Below are positions 410-60,420 of a stretch of 64,000 nt of DNA, piece by piece. Source of the stretch: Mobula birostris (Eukaryota). The first letter of the stretch is position 1; every line of letters starts with the position of its first letter. The stretch lies in assembly GCF_030028105.1 (NCBI RefSeq), contig NC_092385.1:25758774-25822773 (forward strand). The letters run 5' to 3'. The notes beneath the pieces were generated by a model. The model was not told where the DNA came from. It worked only from the letters and a program-made list of their open reading frames with translations, and did no database searches. The position numbers were made by a program, and so were the translations under genes.

Positions 410-1620
410 TATCTCCAGAGACGGCTTATCCACTGATCCAAAGGACTCTCACCACTACCTGGACTGTACCCCGTGCCACCCTGCTACTTGTAAAAATGCC
501 ATCCCCTTGTCTCAGCCGCATCTGCTCTCAGGATGAGGCTTTCCATTCTAGAATGAAGATGTCCTTTTTCAAAGAAAGTGGATTCCATTTTTCCACCATC
601 AATGCTGCCCTCAACCACAACTCTTCCACTTTACACACGTCTGCTCTGAACCCATCCTCCCGCCATGCTACCAGGAATAGGGTTCCTCTTGTCCTCACCT
701 ACCACCCCATCAGCCTCCCCGTCCAGCACAAAATTCTCTACGATGTCCGCCACCTCCAACTGGATCCCACCACTAAACACATCTTTCTCTCACTCCCACT
801 TTATGCTTTCCGCAGGGATCGCTCCCTAGGTGACTCCCTTGTCCATTCGTCCCTCCCCACTGATTCCCTCCTGTCAGTTATTCTTGCAAGTGGAACAAGT
901 GTCTCACCTGCCCCTACACCTCCTCCCTCACTACCATTTAGGGCCCCAAACAGTCCCTTCACCCGTCAGTCTGTTGGGGTCATTTAATGTGCTTGGTGCT
1001 CCCAGTGTGGCCTCTTGTGTATCAGTGAGACCCGACATAGATTGGTAGACCACTTTGCCGAGCACCTACGCTTGTCTGCCAGATCAAGTGGGATCTTCCA
1101 GTGGCCACCCATTTTAATTCCACTTCTCATTCTAATATGTCCATCCATGGCTTCCTCCACTGTCGGGTAAGGCCACACTTAGGTTGGAGGAACACCTTAT
1201 ATTCCGTCAGGGGAGCCTCCAACCTGATGGCATGAACATCAATTTCTCAAAGTTCCAGTAATACCTCCCCCCCCCCACCCACCCACCTACCTACCTTCAC
1301 CGTTTCCCCTCCCTGTGTCCCTCTTTCATGTTATCTCCTTGCCCATCCATCATCTTCCTCTGGTGCTCCTCACCACCCCCTCCCTTTCTTCTTTGTTCTG
1401 TGGCCTTCTGTCTCTTTCACCAATCAACTTCCTAGCTCTTTGCTTCATCCTCCCCCCCCCACTTATTGCCAGGCATTTCTCACTCCCCTCTCTCCCTTCT
1501 AACTCTGACTCATCTTTTTTTTCTCCAGCCCTGCTGAAGGGTTTTGGCCCTAAACGTTGACTGTACTTTTTTCCATAGATGCTGCCTGGCCTGCTGAGTT
1601 CCTACAGCATTTTGTGTGTG
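410..1620 (+). mobile_element. Penelope-like retroelement, 5'-truncated and degenerate (RT C-terminus, GIY-YIG, 3' tail with decayed hammerhead)
   Basis: ORF 496-987 (RICSQDEAFHSR...RVPLVLTYHP...DPTTKHIF) aligns by eye to the 707-aa ORF at 54569-56692; the tail AGATGCTGCCTGGCCTGCTGAGTTCC is shared. Confidence 0.9.
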
Positions 1621-29532: not shown

Positions 29533-29568
29533 AGTCCTGACGAAGGGTCTGGGCCTGAAATGTCGACT
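29533..29568 (+). ncRNA. Minimal type I hammerhead ribozyme candidate in a solo Penelope tail
   Basis: AGTC-CTGACGA-AGG(GTCTGGG)CCT-GAAA-T-GTC-GACT; core intact, helix I AGTC/GACT. Confidence 0.7.
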
Positions 29569-39859: not shown

Positions 39860-40276
39860 CATTCCCCTTCCCTTTCTGTCCTAATGAAGGGTCTTGACCC
39901 AAAATGTCAACTGTTTATTCCTCCCCATAGAAGCTGAATAACTTGGTGAGTTCTTCCAGTATTTTGTGTATGTCTCTCTGGATTTCCAGCATCTGCAGAA
40001 TCTCTTGTGTTTATGATCTAGCATATTTATAAGTGTTGCTGGTGTTGTTTGTTATTGACAAGGTGCCACACATAAAAGTGCTAAGCAGGATAGGAGCCCA
40101 TGATATTACAGAAATGGTCCTAACATGGATGGAATATTAAAAACAAGAGAAAATCTGCAGATGCTGGAAATCAAAGTAATACACACAAAATGCCGGAGGA
40201 ACTCAGCCGGCCAGGCAGCATCTATGGAAAAGAGTAAACAGTCGACGTTTCAGGTTTAGACCCTTCAGCAGGACTG
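39860..40276. repeat. Tail-to-tail inverted Penelope tails (~135 bp each, ~125 bp apart)
   Basis: 39877-40015 (+) is complementary to 40141-40275 (-); both begin with hammerhead-like cores. Confidence 0.8.
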
Positions 40277-49550: not shown

Positions 49551-50079
49551 GTAAGTAATCATTAAAAGTCCTATAAAGTTTTTATCACTTTAGACATATG
49601 CTAATGTCAGACCACCGCTTAACCAGAAAATATTGGAAACAAATCATAAAAAACTTACAACAGAGCAGGATTCCATTTGGTCTGTATTGGTCAAAAAAGA
49701 GCTAGCCAGCTTAATCCATCATTCCAGCATTAGTGCCATGGGTTCTACAGGTTATTGCTCTCCAACTACATGTTGAAGTTTTTTTTTAAAAAGTGTGATA
49801 AGGGCTTCTGCCTTTTTCCCCTTTAGGCAGTCATTTCCGGACCCCCTTCTGCTCTCGAGGTGATTTCTTTTTCATTCTTCTAATTCTACCAGTTACTTTG
49901 TTACTTCAAATTTATGTCCATTGCTTTAGATATCCTCGTTAAGGGAAACGATTCATTCCTATTTTATCTTGATTTCCCCAATTTTATATATCTGTGTTTA
50001 CGCTGCCCCTTGACATCCCATCTTTCAAATAAAACAATCCCAGTTTTTTCAAATCTTTCCTCCAATTTATTGTGTTAGT

Positions 50080-52133: not shown

Positions 52134-53080
52134 GTTAGTATTCATTGTCCTTACCAGTGTAATAAACTATTCTCGTTATTTCATGCTGTTATATTTATTT
52201 TGAGGTATCCTTGTAATCAAACCTTCCATTTGAATTACTTTCTCTTAGATTTAGATGAGCTGGTTAAATATTTGCTGCTTTCAATGTAGTTTAGACTATG
52301 AAAACAAATCACTTTTATAAATCTAGTTAGCTGAGGCGTTGCCTCTTTTAGTAAAGAAATGCTTTTACTTAGCAATCAGGTATTAGAACTTGTAGAGACA
52401 CAAAAGACTGCAGGTGCTGAGATCTGAAACGACAAACAAACAATGTGCTGGAGGATCTCAGGAGGCTGACTGGCATCTGTGGGATGGAAAGATTTGCAAC
52501 ATCTCAGGTTGAAACCTTGATCAGGACTGAATTAGAAACTATGCAATTCACTTGGGTCAGTTAATTGCCAGTTCATCCTCTGTATTGCTGGCTATTGTGT
52601 AGTTACAGTGGTTTAGAACAGAAATAGAATAATTAATATTATTCTATTAGTGATAATTATATTAATAATTCATTAATAATTTAATTTAATTATTCCTCAA
52701 GTTAAAATTTTGTCTCTGCGTTAAAAACTATATTCTCTTTTTAACTCGCACAGATGTTTAAATCGAAGTTCCTATAGAGAAACTCTTAATTTTTTGAAGC
52801 TGTTATTTGAGGGGATTTTACAGGATTGGTTGGGAAAGGGTGTGTACAAGGGTGAATAGAGAAGAGTTTGAGTTATCTTCCTTTGATTTACCTGCAAGAA
52901 AATGAATCTCAGGGTTATATATGGTGAAATACATATACTTTAATATAAATTTACTTTGACTTTGAACCTTTACTCATGGATAGTATCTTCCACTACATGA
53001 ACAAATAATCAAACACCGAATGTTTTAATTGTCACATTTTGTACAGTTTTTTGTGTTTATATATGTGTGTTACTTTTTAG

Positions 53081-53198
53081 ACAACGGAAGCTATTGATGT
53101 GTATTCCTTTGGCCACGTATTATATGAAATGACTTATGGAAAGCCACCAGATTCTGTTCCAGTAGACAGCTTCCCATCTGCTCCTTCCTCAGATATAG
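53081..53198 (+). CDS. PXK: PXK exon 11
   Basis: TTEAIDVYSFGHVLYEMTYGKPPDSVPVDSFPSAPSSDI. Confidence 0.96.
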
Positions 53199-54479
53199 GT
53201 TAGAAATTCTTAAATTGTATCTTGTTTATTAATTATTTCTAATGCGCCTTGCAAACCTGGTTTGTGCACATTAGCCTGATTTGCTTGCCATCACTTAATA
53301 TTATCCATCATCCTGACCATGTTGTCAGAATGCAGACCAAAATCTGTTTTTAAGAAAAGTGTGTGTGTATGTGTGTGTATATATATCTATCTATCTATCT
53401 GTGTGTGTATATAAAATGCATATATAATATCTGTGTATATCTGGGGCTTTATTCCCTGCGCTGAAATTTAAGTTTATTGGATTCACTGTAAGATCTGCTG
53501 TTATGAAGGTCTAACATTTTTATTAAATAAAGCTAATTGAATTGTATGGAACATTGACAAGGATAGCATTCAACAGACCAGAGAATGTGGCCCTATCAAG
53601 TCCTTTAAAATTGCAGCAATTCCTTTTATATTCTGCCAATGGCTAACATACTCTTGCTTTGCTATAATTGGTTGCTTTACCTGCACAATTAATACATTTC
53701 CTGAATTGCCATTGCAAATTCTTTCCTACTTTTTTTAAAAAAAGAAATGGTATTTATGTTTTCTATTGAAGTTCATAGCTCACATTTGCTTAGAGTATAC
53801 TCCTTTTGACTAACTCTCCGTGTCCCTATGCACAGTTCAGTTTTCCACCAAGCTTTCTGTCACTAATAGTCCTGAAGAATTTGCACATTCTTCTCAACTA
53901 GTCAATGATATAAAAATAAGTGACTTACTTTCCCAGTGTTTCTGTCCTTTAACAATAATCTGTTCAATGTTAACTCTGTGAACCCAAATTTACTGTGAAC
54001 CCAAATAACTTTACTGAACATTACTAAATGCATTTTTAAAAATCCAGCTATCTACTAGTTACCCCTTGTCCATTTTTTTTGGATCAAAATAAAGCTGTTG
54101 TGCTTAAATAAAATAAAATAAAATCACCGACTTTGTCCGCTCAGGGGATCTCCCATCCACTGCAAATAATCTTATTATTAAACCCGCCGATAAGCGGGGT
54201 GCTGTTGTAGTCTGGCGTACTGACCTCTACCTTGCCGAGGCACAGCGACAACTCGCGGATACCTCTTATTTACCCCTCAATCGTGACCCCACTAAGGAGC
54301 ACCAGGCCATTGTCTCCCACACCATCACCGACTTTATCTGCTCAGGGGATCTCCCATTCACTGCAATTCCTCAGATCCCACCGTCAACTCCTGGGCCCTC
54401 AGAGGCTCCATCTTCCTCTCACCCCAACCCTCCCCTCTCCACTGACACACCCAGCCTCCCCCCCTCCCCCCTCTGATCC

Positions 54480-56692
54480 CGGCTCTCATCCGTGCCGGGT
54501 CTTTACCATCCCCTCCGACCTTCAACTGTCAGAGGCAGAACGCTCTGTTCTCAGTAAGGGCCTCACGTTTGTCCCCCTTCGCCCACACCTCAGCGAGTTC
54601 CGTGTTCGCCATGATGCGGAACTTTTCTTCTGCCGTCTCCGTCTCCGAGCCTACTTCTTCAGCAAGGACTCTTCCACCCCCCACCGATGACCCCTTCTCC
54701 CGTCTTCAACCCTCCTCTTCTTCATGGACACCCCGCTCTGGTCTTCTGCCTGCTCTGGATCTCTTTATCGCTAATTACCGACGGGACATCAACCGTCTCG
54801 ACTTCACCGCACCTTGTCCCCAATCCAACCTCACTCCTTCGGAACGCTCTGCTCTCCACTCCCTCCGCACTAATCCTAACCTTATTATTAAACCCGCCAA
54901 TAAGGGGGGTGCTGTTGTAGTCTGGCGTACTGATCTCTACCTTGCCGAGGCACAGCGACAACTCGCGGATACCTCCTCTTATTTACCCCTCGATCGTGAC
55001 CCCACTAAGGAGCACCAGGCCATTGTCTCCCACACCATCACCGACTTTATTCGCTCAGGGGATCTCCCATCCACTGCTACCAACCTTATAGTTCCCATAC
55101 CCCGCACTTCCCGTTTCTACCTCCTACCCAAGATCCACAAACCTGCCTGTCCTGGCCGACCTATTGTCTCAGCTTGCTCCTGCCCCACCGAACTCGTTTC
55201 TGCATACCTCGACACGGTTTTATCACCCCTTGTTCAATCCCTTCCGACCTATGTTCGTGACACTTCTCACGCTCTTAAACTTTTTGATGATTTTAAGTTC
55301 CCTGGCCCCCACCGCTTTATTTTCACCATGGATGTCCAGTCCTTATATACTTCCATCCCCCATCAGGAAGGTCTCAAAGCTCTATGCTTCTTTTTGGATT
55401 CCAGACCTAATCAGTTCCCCTCTACCACCACTCTGCTCCGTCTAGCGGAATTAGTCCTTACTCTTAATAATTTCTCCTTTGGCTCCTCCCACTTCCTCCA
55501 AACTAAAGGTGTAGCTATGGGCACCAGTATGGGTCCTAGCTATGCCTGCCTTTTTGTTGGGTTTGTGGAACAATCTATGTTCCATGCCTATTCTGGTATC
55601 TGTCCCCCACTTTTCCTTCGCTACATCGACGGCTGCATTGGCACTGCTTCCTGCACGCATGCAGAACTCGTTGACTTTATTAACTTTGCCTCCAACTTTC
55701 ACCCTGCCCTCAAGTTTACCTGGTCCATTTCCGACACCTCCCTCCCCTTTCTAGATTTTTCTGTCTCTGTCTCTGGAGACAGCTTATCCACTAATGTCTA
55801 CTGTAAGCCTACTGACTCTCACAGCTATCTGGACTATTCCTCTTCTCACCCTGTTTCTTGCAAAAACGCCATCCCCTTCTCGCAATTCCTCCGTCTCCGC
55901 CGCATCTGCTCTCAGGATGAGGCTTTTCATTCTAGGACGAGGGAGATGTCTTCCTTTTCTAAAGAAAGGGGCTTCCCTTCCTCCACTATCAACTCTGCTC
56001 TCAAACGCATCTCCCCCATTTCACGTACATCTGCTCTCACTCCATCCTCCCGCCACCCCACTAGGAATAGGGTTCCCCTGTTCCTCACCTACCACCCCAC
56101 CACCCTCCGGGTCCAACATATTATTCTCCGGAACTTCCGCCACCTTCAGCGGGATCCCACCACTAAGCACATCTTTCCCTCCCCCCCCCCCCCCCCCGCA
56201 TTCCGCAGGGATCGCTCCCTACGCAACTCCCTTGTCCATTCGTCCCCCCCATCGCTCCCCACTGATCTCCCTCCTGGCACTTATCCGTGTAAGCGGAACA
56301 AGTGCTACACATGCCCTTACACTTCCTCCCTTACCACCATTCAGGGCCCCAAGCAGTCCTTCCAGGTGAGGCAACACTTCACCTGTGAGTCGACTGGGGT
56401 GATATGCTGCGTCCGGTGCTCCCGATATGACCTTTTATATATTGGCGAGACCCGACGCAGACTGGGAGACCGCTTTGCTGAACATCTACGCTCTGTCCGC
56501 CAGAGAAAGCAGGATCTCCCAGTGGCCACACATTTTAATTCCACATCCCATTCCCATTCTGACATGTCTATCCACGGCCTCCTCTATTGTAAAGATGAAG
56601 CCACACTCAGGTTGGAGCAACAACACCTTATATTCCGTCTGGGTAGCCTCCAACCTGATGGCATGAACATCGACTTCTCTAACTTCCGCTAA
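54480..56692 (+). pseudogene. Penelope RT-GIY-YIG ORF with one frameshift and active-site substitutions
   Basis: LSKGLTFVP frame joins the 707-aa frame across C6 at 54677-54682; KPANKGGAVVV, FYLLPKIHK, MDVQSLYTSI, GVAMG, RYIDG (canonical YIDD), GVIC...YIGET..R..EH. Confidence 0.9.
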
Positions 56693-56988
56693 GGCCCCAC
56701 CTCCCCCTCGTACCCCATCTGTTACTTATTTTTATGCACACATTCTTTCTCTCACTCTCCTTTTTCTCCCTCTGTCCCTCTGAATATACTTCTTACCCAT
56801 CCTCTGGGTTCCCCCCCACCCCCGTCTTTCTTCCCGGACCTCCTGTCCCATGATCCTCTCGTATCCCCTTTTGCCCATCACCTGTCCAGCTCTTGGCTCT
56901 ATCCCTCCCCCTCCTGTCTTCTCCTATCATTTTGGATCTCCCCCTCCCCCTCCAACTTTCAAATCCCTTACTCACTCTTCCTTCAGTT

Positions 56989-57024
56989 AGTCCTGACGAA
57001 GGGTCTCGGCCTGAAACGTCGACT
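56989..57024 (+). ncRNA. Minimal type I hammerhead ribozyme in the Penelope tail
   Basis: AGTC-CTGACGA-AGG(GTCTCGG)CCT-GAAA-C-GTC^-GACT; all core nucleotides present; palindromic ACGT helix III; predicted cleavage after C57020. Confidence 0.8.
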
Positions 57025-57344
57025 GCACCTCTTCCTACAGATGCTGCCTGGCCTGCTGTGTTCACCAGCAACCTTGATGTGTGATGGCTGTTGTGTTTAA
57101 ATCCTGGAATTTACTACCCAGCAACATTTTGGGAGCATCTTCACCACCATATGCTGGAGCAATTCAATAAAACATCCTTTCATTTTTTCCCAACATCCCT
57201 GTAGGACTTGATATTGGACAGATGTGTTGTGAATTAGGCTATTTATAATGCACAGTAGTAGAACCTAGGACAGTTTAGCACAGTACAAGCCCTTTCAATA
57301 TCGAAAGTAATACTTGGAAGCTACAATAATGCTCTTATGTTATT

Positions 57345-57618
57345 TTACTTACTTATTTAGAAATTTAGCATGGAACAGGCTCTTCTGGCCCAACAAGCTG
57401 CACTGTCCAGCAACTCATCTAATCACAGGACAATTTGCAATGCCCAATTAACCTACTAACTGGTACATCTTTGGACTGCGGGAAGAAACCAAAGCACCCA
57501 GAGGAAACCGCGTGATTCATGAGGAGAACGTACAAACTCCTTACAGAGAGTGAACTCCAAACTCTGGAATACCCTTAGTTGTAGTAGTGTTGCGCTAACT
57601 GCTATGTTACCATGGCAC
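57345..57618 (-). mobile_element. V-SINE copy
   Basis: Reverse complement of the V-domain (GGGAAGAAACCAAAGCACCCAGAGGAAACC...GAGAACGTACAAACTCC). Confidence 0.7.
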
Positions 57619-59323
57619 ATCAGTATTAGCGAACATAGTGCATTCAGTGTCTTAAGTTTTGGAATATTATGAAAATTTTTAATGTGTTTGAACCACCATG
57701 CATAATTCTAGGGCCTAGAAATTTTGCAGAGCATTCCACACAGCTGTTGTGTAGCTTCAAACTTTAGTTGATGCATTTTTGAATTATTCTTTTCAGCCAC
57801 AAGTTTTTTGTTCCTATGCTCTTTTTGTTAGGGATTGCCAGCCATGCTTTCTCATTACAAATGTTGAGGTAAACTTTTAATAAGTTTAGAGAATTAAATG
57901 AGCTTTGTTTTCTGCCACTATATCATAATGAAGCAGATTTATTATGCTTGAAACGGAATTTGTTGAGGTAGGTTTCCTGAACTTTGTATTGATTTTTGAA
58001 CTCGTCCAGGCAGGACAGCATTATGAATTTTGAGTTTGTAGCTACAAATTTTACTGGCAAAGTGAATGATTTCATCAGAATGTTAACTGTTTTTAGGAGC
58101 TTATAGGTATTTAAGTAAGTATTATCCTCCTTTCCATTTGTTTTCCGATACTGCTATTTTACTAGACGCACTGATCTATTCTGTGGAGTAAGGTCCATTG
58201 TAGTAATAGCATCTTCCTGGGCCATTCTTCTCATTTCTCCTTGTGGATATCTGCAAGCTATATACGGAGTGTGACTGTCTTCTGATGCACATATATATTG
58301 TTTAAACAGGTGAATCATTGCATGTAGAGCAGGAGCACCACAAGTTGTTTGCAGTTTGGAGAAAACAGGTCCTCTGTATGAGTTTTGTATTACCCAAGTT
58401 GAGCTCAATTAATTCATATAGGCCATAAATTATTGTATTTAATGACCATGTCTATATAATATGGTATTTTATCTACTTGAAGAATTTGTTTAATTTCAAA
58501 TAGGTCAGAATATTCATAATGTGTTGAACTCATCAGGACTATATTATTGGAATGTTGCTGAATTGACAATTTGTGTTTTTAGTATGGCATTAATGTGGCA
58601 ATCATGCCAAGGGACTCTCAAGCCACATAAGGCAAAACTAAAGCAGGTGACATAAATCATATTTTAAATAATGGCTTAAAGTTGTAAAGAAATGTGGAGA
58701 AGTTTCAGGAAAGATTGCATAGTCTTGGCAGCGTATCAGTAAAACCTGCTAATGTTCAAGAAGCCTGTATTGGAGGAAGGTGATGAGCAGGTTTGAGAGA
58801 TTGCAAAAAAAGAGGAAAACCTTCAAGACAGATGTAAGCAGCTATGTTTACAATCGAGGGATTCCTTTACCTGAATATGTGATGGTGCACAGAACACAGG
58901 CAGTAGAAGTTTGGATGAGTGTAAAAGTTGGAGACTGGTGCATGGAATAGCTGAATAGTCAACAGTGGATATATATTCACGGAATGGAATTGAGCATTGT
59001 CACTGAATTAGAAATAAATGATCATGTATGAATATATTATTAGATGCAAATCTTAAGACTTAAATAACGAGGTTCACTCCTATTTGCTATGAAGATGGAT
59101 GAATCAGTGACAGGATGTCTAGATTTGCATATATTTGTCAAATGAAAATTCATATAAGCTGCTCATGCGAGTTTGGGCAGCTATTCGTGTCTTTCAAGTA
59201 TTGCTCTTAATCGGTTTAAGGCTTGCCTGATAATACTTTAGCATGTATTTTGTTAAAATTTATTAAAATATTGGTTTTTAATTAAAAAAAAATCAAAAAT
59301 GTGCAAGTATAAGTTGATTAGAA

Positions 59324-59924
59324 GCGGCATGGTAACGTAGTGGTTAGTGCATGGCTTTACAGTTTCAGCAACCTGGGTTCAATTTCTGCCACAGGGTTTG
59401 TACGTTCTCCCGGTGACTGCGTGGGTTTCCATCCACGTTAAGACGTAACGGGTTGGTAGGTTAATTGGTCACACGCCTGTAACCGGGCGGTAGGTTAATT
59501 GGTCACGCCTGTAACTGGGTGGTAGATTAACTGGTCACACACCTGTAACTGGATAGTAGGTTAATTTGTCACAGGCCTGTAACTGGGCGGTAGGTTAACT
59601 GGTCACACGCCTGTAACTGGGTGGTAGGTTAATTTGTCACAGGCCTGTAACTGGGCGGTAGGTTAACTGGTCACACGCCTGTAACCGGGCGGTAGGTTAA
59701 CTGGTCACACGCCTGTAACCGGGCGGTAGGTTAACTGGTCACACGCCTGTAACCGGGCGGTAGGTTAACTGGTCACATGCCCGTAACCGGGCGGTAGGTT
59801 AACTGGTCACATGCCCGTAACCGGGCGGTAGGTTAAACTGGTCACATGCCTGTAACCGGGCGGAGTAAGCTTGTTAGGCTGGAAGGACCTGTTATGAAGC
59901 TATGTCTCTAAATTTAAAAAAAAA
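59324..59924 (+). mobile_element. V-SINE containing an internal minisatellite expansion
   Basis: A/B boxes and V-domain start at 59324-59430; A tail at ~59910-59924. Confidence 0.75.
59455..59861 (+). repeat. 34-bp minisatellite, 12 units
   Basis: Consensus GGTAGGTTAACTGGTCACACGCCTGTAACCGGGC, head-to-tail with no spacers. Confidence 0.95.
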
Positions 59925-59956
59925 TTTCCAAGAAGCTATCTGAATTTTCTTCACAG

Positions 59957-60035
59957 TGTCTGTGTTGCGGTCTATCCTTTCGGCAGAAGCTTGGAAAACA
60001 AATATGCCAACGATTACCCAGCTGCTAGAGACACC
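59957..60035 (+). CDS. PXK: PXK exon 12 (last exon seen; the gene continues past the window)
   Basis: VSVLRSILSAEAWKTNMPTITQLLET(P); CAG/GTAAGT. Confidence 0.92.
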
Positions 60036-60420
60036 GTAAGTGGAAACCCATTTGATATAGTCTTCATAGTTTAGGAAATTTGCATGTAAATGTCACATTT
60101 ATTCTTAATCTTCGATCTTACAGTAAAATGTGTGCTGTTGGGAGAATGATTTATTGTTGGTGCAATGTTTAGAATGTTTATGGTTGATCGGTTCTGAATT
60201 TGTGGTTTCTCAGTTATGTAACTGTAATCTCTTTTCTGCCAGCCTCATGTCATGAATCACTAATGCAGTAAGAAATCATTCTCAAAGCGTTAAACGCAAT
60301 GTTATTTTATTGTGAAGGTACTTGTGGGTGTTTCTGTCTTTGAGATTGTTGTGGCTTTCCTTTTTGCTGAGCCAAGGAATCACACTGCTGCCCAGCTGTT
60401 GAATGAAACAATAGGATGTG

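Follow-up and report, generated by a model that had tools for sequence, protein, structure and literature searches.

An intron of the PXK gene of Mobula birostris contains, on its sense strand, a sequence resembling a minimal hammerhead ribozyme (positions 56989-57024 of the window, the 64,000-nucleotide stretch of DNA analysed here). Is this a genuine ribozyme, what brought it into the intron, and does it cut the transcripts of its host gene? The features considered are listed in Table 1.

Table 1. Features of the window, ordered by position.
Feature	Position	Strand	Evidence or remark
Sole further same-strand copy within the PXK unit that passes the structure descriptor, intron 1	29533..29568	+	U11.1, U15.2, altered loop
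PXK coding exon, 118 nt (11, or 12 with the 33-nt mini-exon)	53081..53198	+	exon map, RNA-type contigs
PXK intron holding the element, 6,758 nt, GT..AG	53199..59956	+	joint 53198>59957 in contigs
Shuffled 5' insertion junction: short duplicated internal pieces, no upstream pLTR	54117..54366	+	
5'-truncated PLE ORF remnant, frameshift near 54677	54367..56692	+	
RT catalytic motif, YIDG	55622..55633	+	
CX4CxxC linker CKRNKCYTC, Neptune/Nematis mark	56288..56314	+	
GIY-YIG endonuclease remnant	56411..56620	+	Pfam E 0.07, under the cut-off
3' pseudo-LTR with its short tail	56693..57084	+	
Segment inverted at the 5' end of the TASOR copy	56750..56918	-	
Segment copied to G000:C20:24,110,430-24,109,628 (minus strand; TASOR intron)	56911..57717	+	98.5% identical
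Helix I, 5' strand AGUC	56989..56992	+	sequence read
Core C3-A9 (CUGACGA) plus extra A	56993..57000	+	sequence read, structure descriptor
Helix II GGGU-CUCG-GCCU; U11.1 at 57012 is the subfamily variant	57001..57012	+	
G12-A15.1, palindromic ACGU (57016-57019) and C17 at 57020	57013..57020	+	
Helix I, 3' strand GACU	57021..57024	+	sequence read
Next PXK exon	59957..60036	+	exon map

The motif reads, segment by segment, AGTC, CTGACGA, A, GGGT CTCG GCCT, GAAA, CG, TC and GACT. It has the traits of the minimal hammerheads of Penelope-like elements (PLEs): the core CUGANGA, GAAA and UH; type I topology with a helix I of 4-5 bp (AGUC/GACU, plus U-G); a helix III shrunk to the palindrome ACGU at 57016-57019; an additional base separating position 9 from 10.1, which is A57000 in the preferred register; and location in a pseudo-LTR (pLTR). 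The GUC triplet ends at C57020, and cleavage is predicted between 57020 and 57021. All the parts named in a first-pass annotation of this DNA (helix I AGTC/GACT, CUGACGA, GAAA, palindromic ACGU, GUC triplet) are found at 56989-57024. Its helix II, drawn as AGG/CCT, is replaced here: the GGGU/GCCU hairpin with the extra A fits better (-2.0 vs -1.1 kcal/mol for AGG/CCU), and the arrangement it had suggested for the family, an extra A after A9 with GGG/CCC as helix II, is supported as the ancestral form. As a consequence of the preferred register, the pair 10.1-11.1 is a G-U wobble and not the conserved G-C; in the alternative register it is A-U. Thus the description "intact" holds for the invariant core bases, which are all present, and does not hold for the conserved G10.1-C11.1 pair. 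This pair is a typical, non-invariant trait of the class; it is absent at 56989-57024, and the G-U in its place is fixed in the subfamily.

A structure descriptor for the minimal fold matched 21 times in 644 kb of genome taken without selection, the window included, and 0 times in each of five second-order Markov controls; the exact 36-mer occurs 20,082 times in the genome. Thus the motif is not a chance match. The Rfam hammerhead models, proposed as a check by the same annotation, gave 0 matches in the window at the gathering threshold, and hammerhead was absent from 55000-59000 even at E<=10. Judged by its sequence, the motif is a genuine minimal type I hammerhead of a PLE, of a known kind.

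By linker and domains, the element that carries it is a dead, 5'-truncated EN+ PLE of the Neptune/Nematis type. Matches to RVT_1 (E 0.0019) and GIY-YIG (E 0.07) lie in one ORF, both under the curated cut-offs. A frame of 748 codons occupies 54446-56692, and the motif begins 297 nt past its stop, in the 3' pLTR; this placement bears out the earlier proposal of a Penelope hammerhead in a pLTR tail. We consider the element dead because it has YIDG for YIDD, a one-base insertion near 54677, and has lost its first 1.1 kb; a full ORF and an intact RT, as in an autonomous copy, are both lacking. YIDD was observed in 12 of 15 relatives, the pattern being unmatched in the other three. The missing part, which includes the upstream pLTR, is seen in L132, L139, L145 and L146, the four of the 15 long relatives that keep an upstream pLTR with a second hammerhead. 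This hammerhead is situated about 1,115 nt before window position 54376, has U11.1 in all four, and is separated from the downstream one by about 3.7 kb. In the long frame, the first ATG comes about 170 nt after the motif start. The pieces at the 5' junction (54117-54366) match 55037-55089 and 54877-55077. The tail ends at about 57084, and many relatives extend about 40 nt more. The element differs from the consensus of the 15 relatives at 27 of 1,698 sites, which indicates a young insertion. Other traits of the Neptune/Nematis type are present in the family, namely partial-tandem pLTRs, inverted 5' copies and a tail; an inverted piece starting at the tail was found in 26 of 78 sampled insertions. 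The hexamer TCAGTT at 56983-56989, directly 5' of helix I, is presumably initiator-like. Many truncations and restarts are located at 56974-56990, perhaps the RNA start of the element. A Poseidon label was considered and ruled out by the CX4CxxC linker. CX2-5CxxC linkers are given as the Neptune/Nematis mark in the accessible text of Craig et al. (PMC8557442).

PXK from Mobula and Hypanus rays matches the exon at 53081-53198 with 100% identity, and the coding exons of the PXK protein P0005 extend from 27647 to 90444. In two runs guessed to be RNA (X9 and X11, analysed as contigs only), contigs connect 53198 to 59957 over GT..AG; thus the intron is spliced. Unique bins of the PXK intron lack coverage in X11, which carries no weight either way. 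The exon map and this joint confirm that the motif lies on the sense strand of a PXK intron. Its number, given as 11, is correct if a 33-nt exon at 49827-49859 is skipped, and becomes 12 if that exon is used, as in P0004/P0005. SINE-like repeats, of high copy number by contig depth, occur at 57376-57610, 59396-59500 and 52900-52960, one of them within the segment copied to TASOR.

The exact 36-mer with U11.1 has 20,082 copies in the genome (G000) versus 4,596 with C, and the exact 60-mer, extended by 24 nt of subfamily flank, has 7,183 versus 191. From 15,027 copies found with an upstream anchor, 90 of the first 100 listed were analysed, five tandem repeats and the last five being omitted: 81 have U11.1 and 7 have C11.1. 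Mutations at the true CpG sites occur in 2-11 of about 90 of these copies. Private CpG decay of the window copy, considered as an origin of U11.1, is ruled out by the U/C copy counts, which identify U11.1 as an inherited subfamily character and not decay. Given the counts, the anchor sample and the four full-length copies, all U, a source lineage with U11.1 made the majority of the exact copies. CCC-GAAA, attributed by the first-pass annotation to other copies, is the form of older families; the consensus of the window copy's own subfamily is CCT-GAAA. The copy is thus neither special nor fully canonical: it carries U11.1 and has 20,082 identical forms in the genome, itself among them.

Excess conservation of the core across copies, which that annotation had named among the tests of its claim, is not observed: in the 90 copies, 7 of 900 non-CpG core positions are mutated versus 61 of 5,213 non-CpG positions outside the core (p=0.39); the CpG site G8 is mutated in 7 of 90 versus 52 of 804 for other CpG positions. 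The copies decay neutrally, as expected of dead insertions. The whole core is still present in 78 of the 90, because the copies are young. Covariation of the helices is weak: in 13 divergent copies, a biased set partly chosen with the descriptor, helices are 96.2% paired versus 94.6% in shuffled data (35/500; score 12/500), with one two-sided change. Older families with CUGCYGA (core A6 to C) keep the helices; examples are 40241-40276 (minus strand), 1527-1562 (plus strand) and L239. Short tandem arrays derived from the hammerhead region were found with 58-nt and 49-nt units (G000:C9:21,104,383-21,104,876, L331-L338; G000:C1:20,927,056-20,927,332, L205). More than 10 hammerhead-tail copies of several families lie within about 10 kb at G000:C12:10,037,000-10,048,000 (L237-L241).

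Does the U11.1 variant cut? Copies breaking after C17, at -1 or at +2 were searched, these three positions only, and all matches were inspected. After C17, 20 of 53 matches (18 loci) restart upstream in direct orientation, and all of them are U11.1; 11 have no microhomology and 6 restart at 56989, the remaining matches being mostly small indels. At -1, 7 loci restart among 45 matches, and at +2 none of 10. The excess at C17 is significant against equal thirds (p=9e-5) and modest against -1 alone (p=0.04), and the C17 joints correspond to about 0.07% of exact copies. A copy that runs across the site is no proof that its template was uncut, since RT might pass over a nick. These joints are a hint that U11.1 elements may cleave at a low rate in the element RNA. 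Most simply, RT would have jumped onto RNA with its 3' end at C17, sometimes trimmed by one base.

A segment of the PXK intron has been copied into an intron of TASOR, 1.7 Mb away on the same contig. Some 630 nt of it are unique PXK intron lying past the end of the element. The flank 57090-57370 has at least two full-length genome matches, at the PXK and TASOR loci. Of these, PXK is probably the source: it carries the longer element, and its flank runs on. The TASOR intron (3,587 nt; G000:C20:24,111,865-24,108,279, minus strand, L077/L078) is flanked by same-strand exons matching the TASOR PIN domain, as identified in a scan of 116 of 646 candidate frames. At the copy, no target-site duplication was detected. 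The copy adjoins a C-type (C11.1) pLTR, forming two sense hammerheads 992 nt apart; the captured piece and this pLTR have diverged at 10 of 807 and 8 of 362 sites, respectively (p=0.21), which is compatible with one age for both or with two. Two X11 contigs over 57039-57717, at a depth of about 50, carry the letters of the TASOR copy at 57126, 57557, 57574, 57620 and a 4-nt gap at 57345; thus the TASOR intron is present in this run, guessed to be RNA. TASOR is a subunit of the retroelement-silencing complex HUSH. A further 1.5-kb subfamily copy, antisense to TASOR and 94.7% identical to the window element, occurs at L078:14,777-16,297 (G000:C20:24.115-24.116 Mb). In the predicted fold of the 1,472-nt TASOR region, the inverted piece forms a long hairpin (about 170 bp) and no double hammerhead is formed. 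Cutting of the twin hammerheads as a dimer, which would free a circularisable 992-nt RNA consisting mostly of PXK intron, a retrozyme at birth, is very unlikely. In our literature search, which covered few subscription papers, nothing was found on a hammerhead ribozyme in a TASOR intron.

Both observations admit another explanation. U11.1 may have killed or crippled the ribozyme, the subfamily having spread because cleavage is unnecessary or harmful, and the joints at C17 would then reflect stalling or slippage of RT at helix I. Indeed, G10.1-C11.1 is listed as highly conserved by Cervera and De la Pena (PMC4209133, accessible text), and the U form is weaker by 1.7-1.9 kcal/mol per monomer. 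Hammerhead mutants are reported to insert normally in vitro (PMC11167929), and Naiads to proliferate without canonical hammerheads (PMC8557442), both according to the accessible text; breaks at -1 also exist, at 7 loci. On the other hand, 18 loci at C17, all of U type, stand against 0 of 10 at +2, and helix geometry would place 56989 beside 57024 and not beside 57020. We regard a crippled ribozyme as possible but doubtful, and retain low-rate cleavage in the element RNA. In our account of the TASOR copy, the PXK locus would once have served as a template, most probably in the form of RNA that the family's RT copied in trans. An intronic segment does not by itself distinguish an RNA from a DNA template. 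The copy could instead result from DNA-templated repair, by template switching between loci 1.7 Mb apart. The shared contig, the lack of poly(A) and of a target-site duplication, and microhomology at the 5' joint agree with such repair; the inversion does not start at the tail, unlike that in 26 of 78 sampled insertions, and only 2 of the 78 were assigned the geometry of the TASOR copy. However, the copy starts within a pLTR and abuts another pLTR, the junction of its inverted and direct pieces spans no more than 8 nt of template (56918/56911), and its layout fits the two direct and one inverted pLTRs around captured DNA described in the accessible text of PMC3846280. We consider repair rather unlikely, and copying from RNA remains our preferred route.

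The remaining question is whether the PXK copy itself can cut. The window insertion contains no tandem partner hammerhead. The other same-strand copy of the PXK unit that passes the descriptor, at 29533, lies 27.5 kb upstream of 56989, and the sense copies at 39878, 68083 and 81627 have broken cores. In the minimum free energy (MFE) structure of the isolated 36-mer, GACG of the core pairs with CGUC, burying the cut site; in contexts of 135-400 nt, helices I and II have a pair probability of about 0, and the double hammerhead is 15-21 kcal/mol above the MFE in four pairings. Neither an active monomer nor a dimer at the PXK or TASOR locus is thus supported by folding; this is weak evidence, as ViennaRNA ignores core and tertiary contacts. 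With no tandem partner and no active fold predicted, the motif is likely inert in PXK pre-mRNA. The first-pass annotation expected the copy in every PXK pre-mRNA; that such presence implies activity is not supported.

Published data on related ribozymes point in the same direction. According to the accessible text of PMC4209133, monomers of minimal PLE hammerheads are inactive and dimers weak in vitro; dimer cleavage is described by Lunse et al. (PMC5785218), as paraphrased in the accessible part of PMC6765202. The anole hammerhead, which belongs to another clade (Poseidon) and not to the Neptune/Nematis type, is reported to cleave only with its protein and not to be required for insertion, and RNA-seq revealed no ends at its site (PMC11167929, accessible text). 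No measured effect of G10.1-U11.1 was found in the accessible literature.

We propose that the hammerhead works only when two copies meet through ACGU/ACGU. The partner would come from tandem element RNA, with units about 3.7 kb apart, or from two RNAs held by the element protein. The paired hammerheads would then cut, at a low rate, after C17 near the 5' end of the element RNA, and cutting would persist in the U11.1 form. A lone intron copy would adopt the GACG:CGUC decoy or dissolve into its flanks, and the uncut motif would leave with the lariat. The PXK hammerhead is thus, with high probability, a relic left in the intron by a 5'-truncated, RT-dead Neptune/Nematis-type PLE, and likely an uncut passenger. 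This reading draws on the following observations: the motif and its pLTR location, an ORF that is dead, the lack of an upstream pLTR, the 20,082 identical copies and an intron that splices normally.

In principle, binding of the intron copy in trans by the element protein is conceivable in the germ line. The protein, or abundant element RNA, might then supply the partner hammerhead and bring about cutting in a fraction of PXK pre-mRNAs, likely in the germ line and with little or no effect on spliced mRNA. The invariant core bases are all present, U-type joints end at C17, and the family sequence is very abundant in RNA-type contigs; besides, the locus was a copying template, which suggests an encounter with the element machinery, and protein-assisted cleavage is known for the anole element (PMC11167929, accessible text). 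However, the tail is short, ending at about 57084 where many relatives are about 40 nt longer, and decoy folding is predicted, so we consider such cutting unlikely. A ribozyme adopted by the host and tuning PXK is extremely improbable. The motif does have sense orientation within a transcribed intron, and a contig of organism B (X5) starts 25 nt inside the element and enters the flank, a weak hint of a shared insertion. However, the insertion is young by its 27/1698 differences from the consensus of 15 relatives, and the motif is identical to 20,082 others, has no partner and resides in an intron that splices normally. An uncut passenger remains the preferred reading.

Taken alone, the PXK motif matters little, being an ordinary footprint of an abundant transposon. 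Two observations go beyond the known motif: the majority U11.1 subfamily with its C17 joints, and the PXK-to-TASOR copy with twin sense hammerheads. The former is a natural experiment on the purpose of PLE hammerheads, as the G-U subfamily became the majority and joints remain at the cut site. The latter provides, in a vertebrate, a traced pair of source and copy for host intron DNA captured in association with a PLE, and the TASOR intron with its two sense hammerheads is a better substrate for dimer cleavage in vivo than the PXK copy.

Cartilaginous fish are not named in the accessible main text of the published account of minimal PLE hammerheads, and our literature search, with most subscription papers outside its range, found nothing on Penelope hammerheads in elasmobranchs. 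The ray motif resembles the hammerheads described in the accessible text in its type I fold, intact core, extra nucleotide after A9, short helix I and palindromic collapsed helix III, as well as in its pLTR location and mostly single dispersed copies. It differs in that the majority subfamily is fixed for G10.1-U11.1 instead of the conserved G-C. The ray genome has at least 24,678 exact copies, compared with about 4,000 reported in coelacanth and 9,000 in Xenopus.

Three other systems are comparable as far as their accessible texts go. The anole Poseidon element PAc (Frangieh et al. 2024, PMC11167929) also has a pLTR hammerhead with a tail beyond it and RNA-made copies spanning the site, whereas the ray element has a Neptune/Nematis linker and its first ATG lies outside the motif. 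The captures in Adineta vaga (Arkhipova et al. 2013, PMC3846280) likewise have non-element DNA enclosed by pLTR pieces, two direct and one inverted; in the ray, a vertebrate, the source locus is identified at 98.5%, there is no target-site duplication, and two events may be involved. In contrast to the animal non-LTR retrozymes (Li, Clavereau, Pollet 2026, 10.64898/2026.07.22.740005), the copy in the PXK intron is a lone one joined to an ORF remnant, and the captured ray flank has at least two genomic copies with no amplification. The retrozymes nevertheless share with the ray family the pLTR-derived type I hammerheads, and the TASOR copy has the tandem pair.
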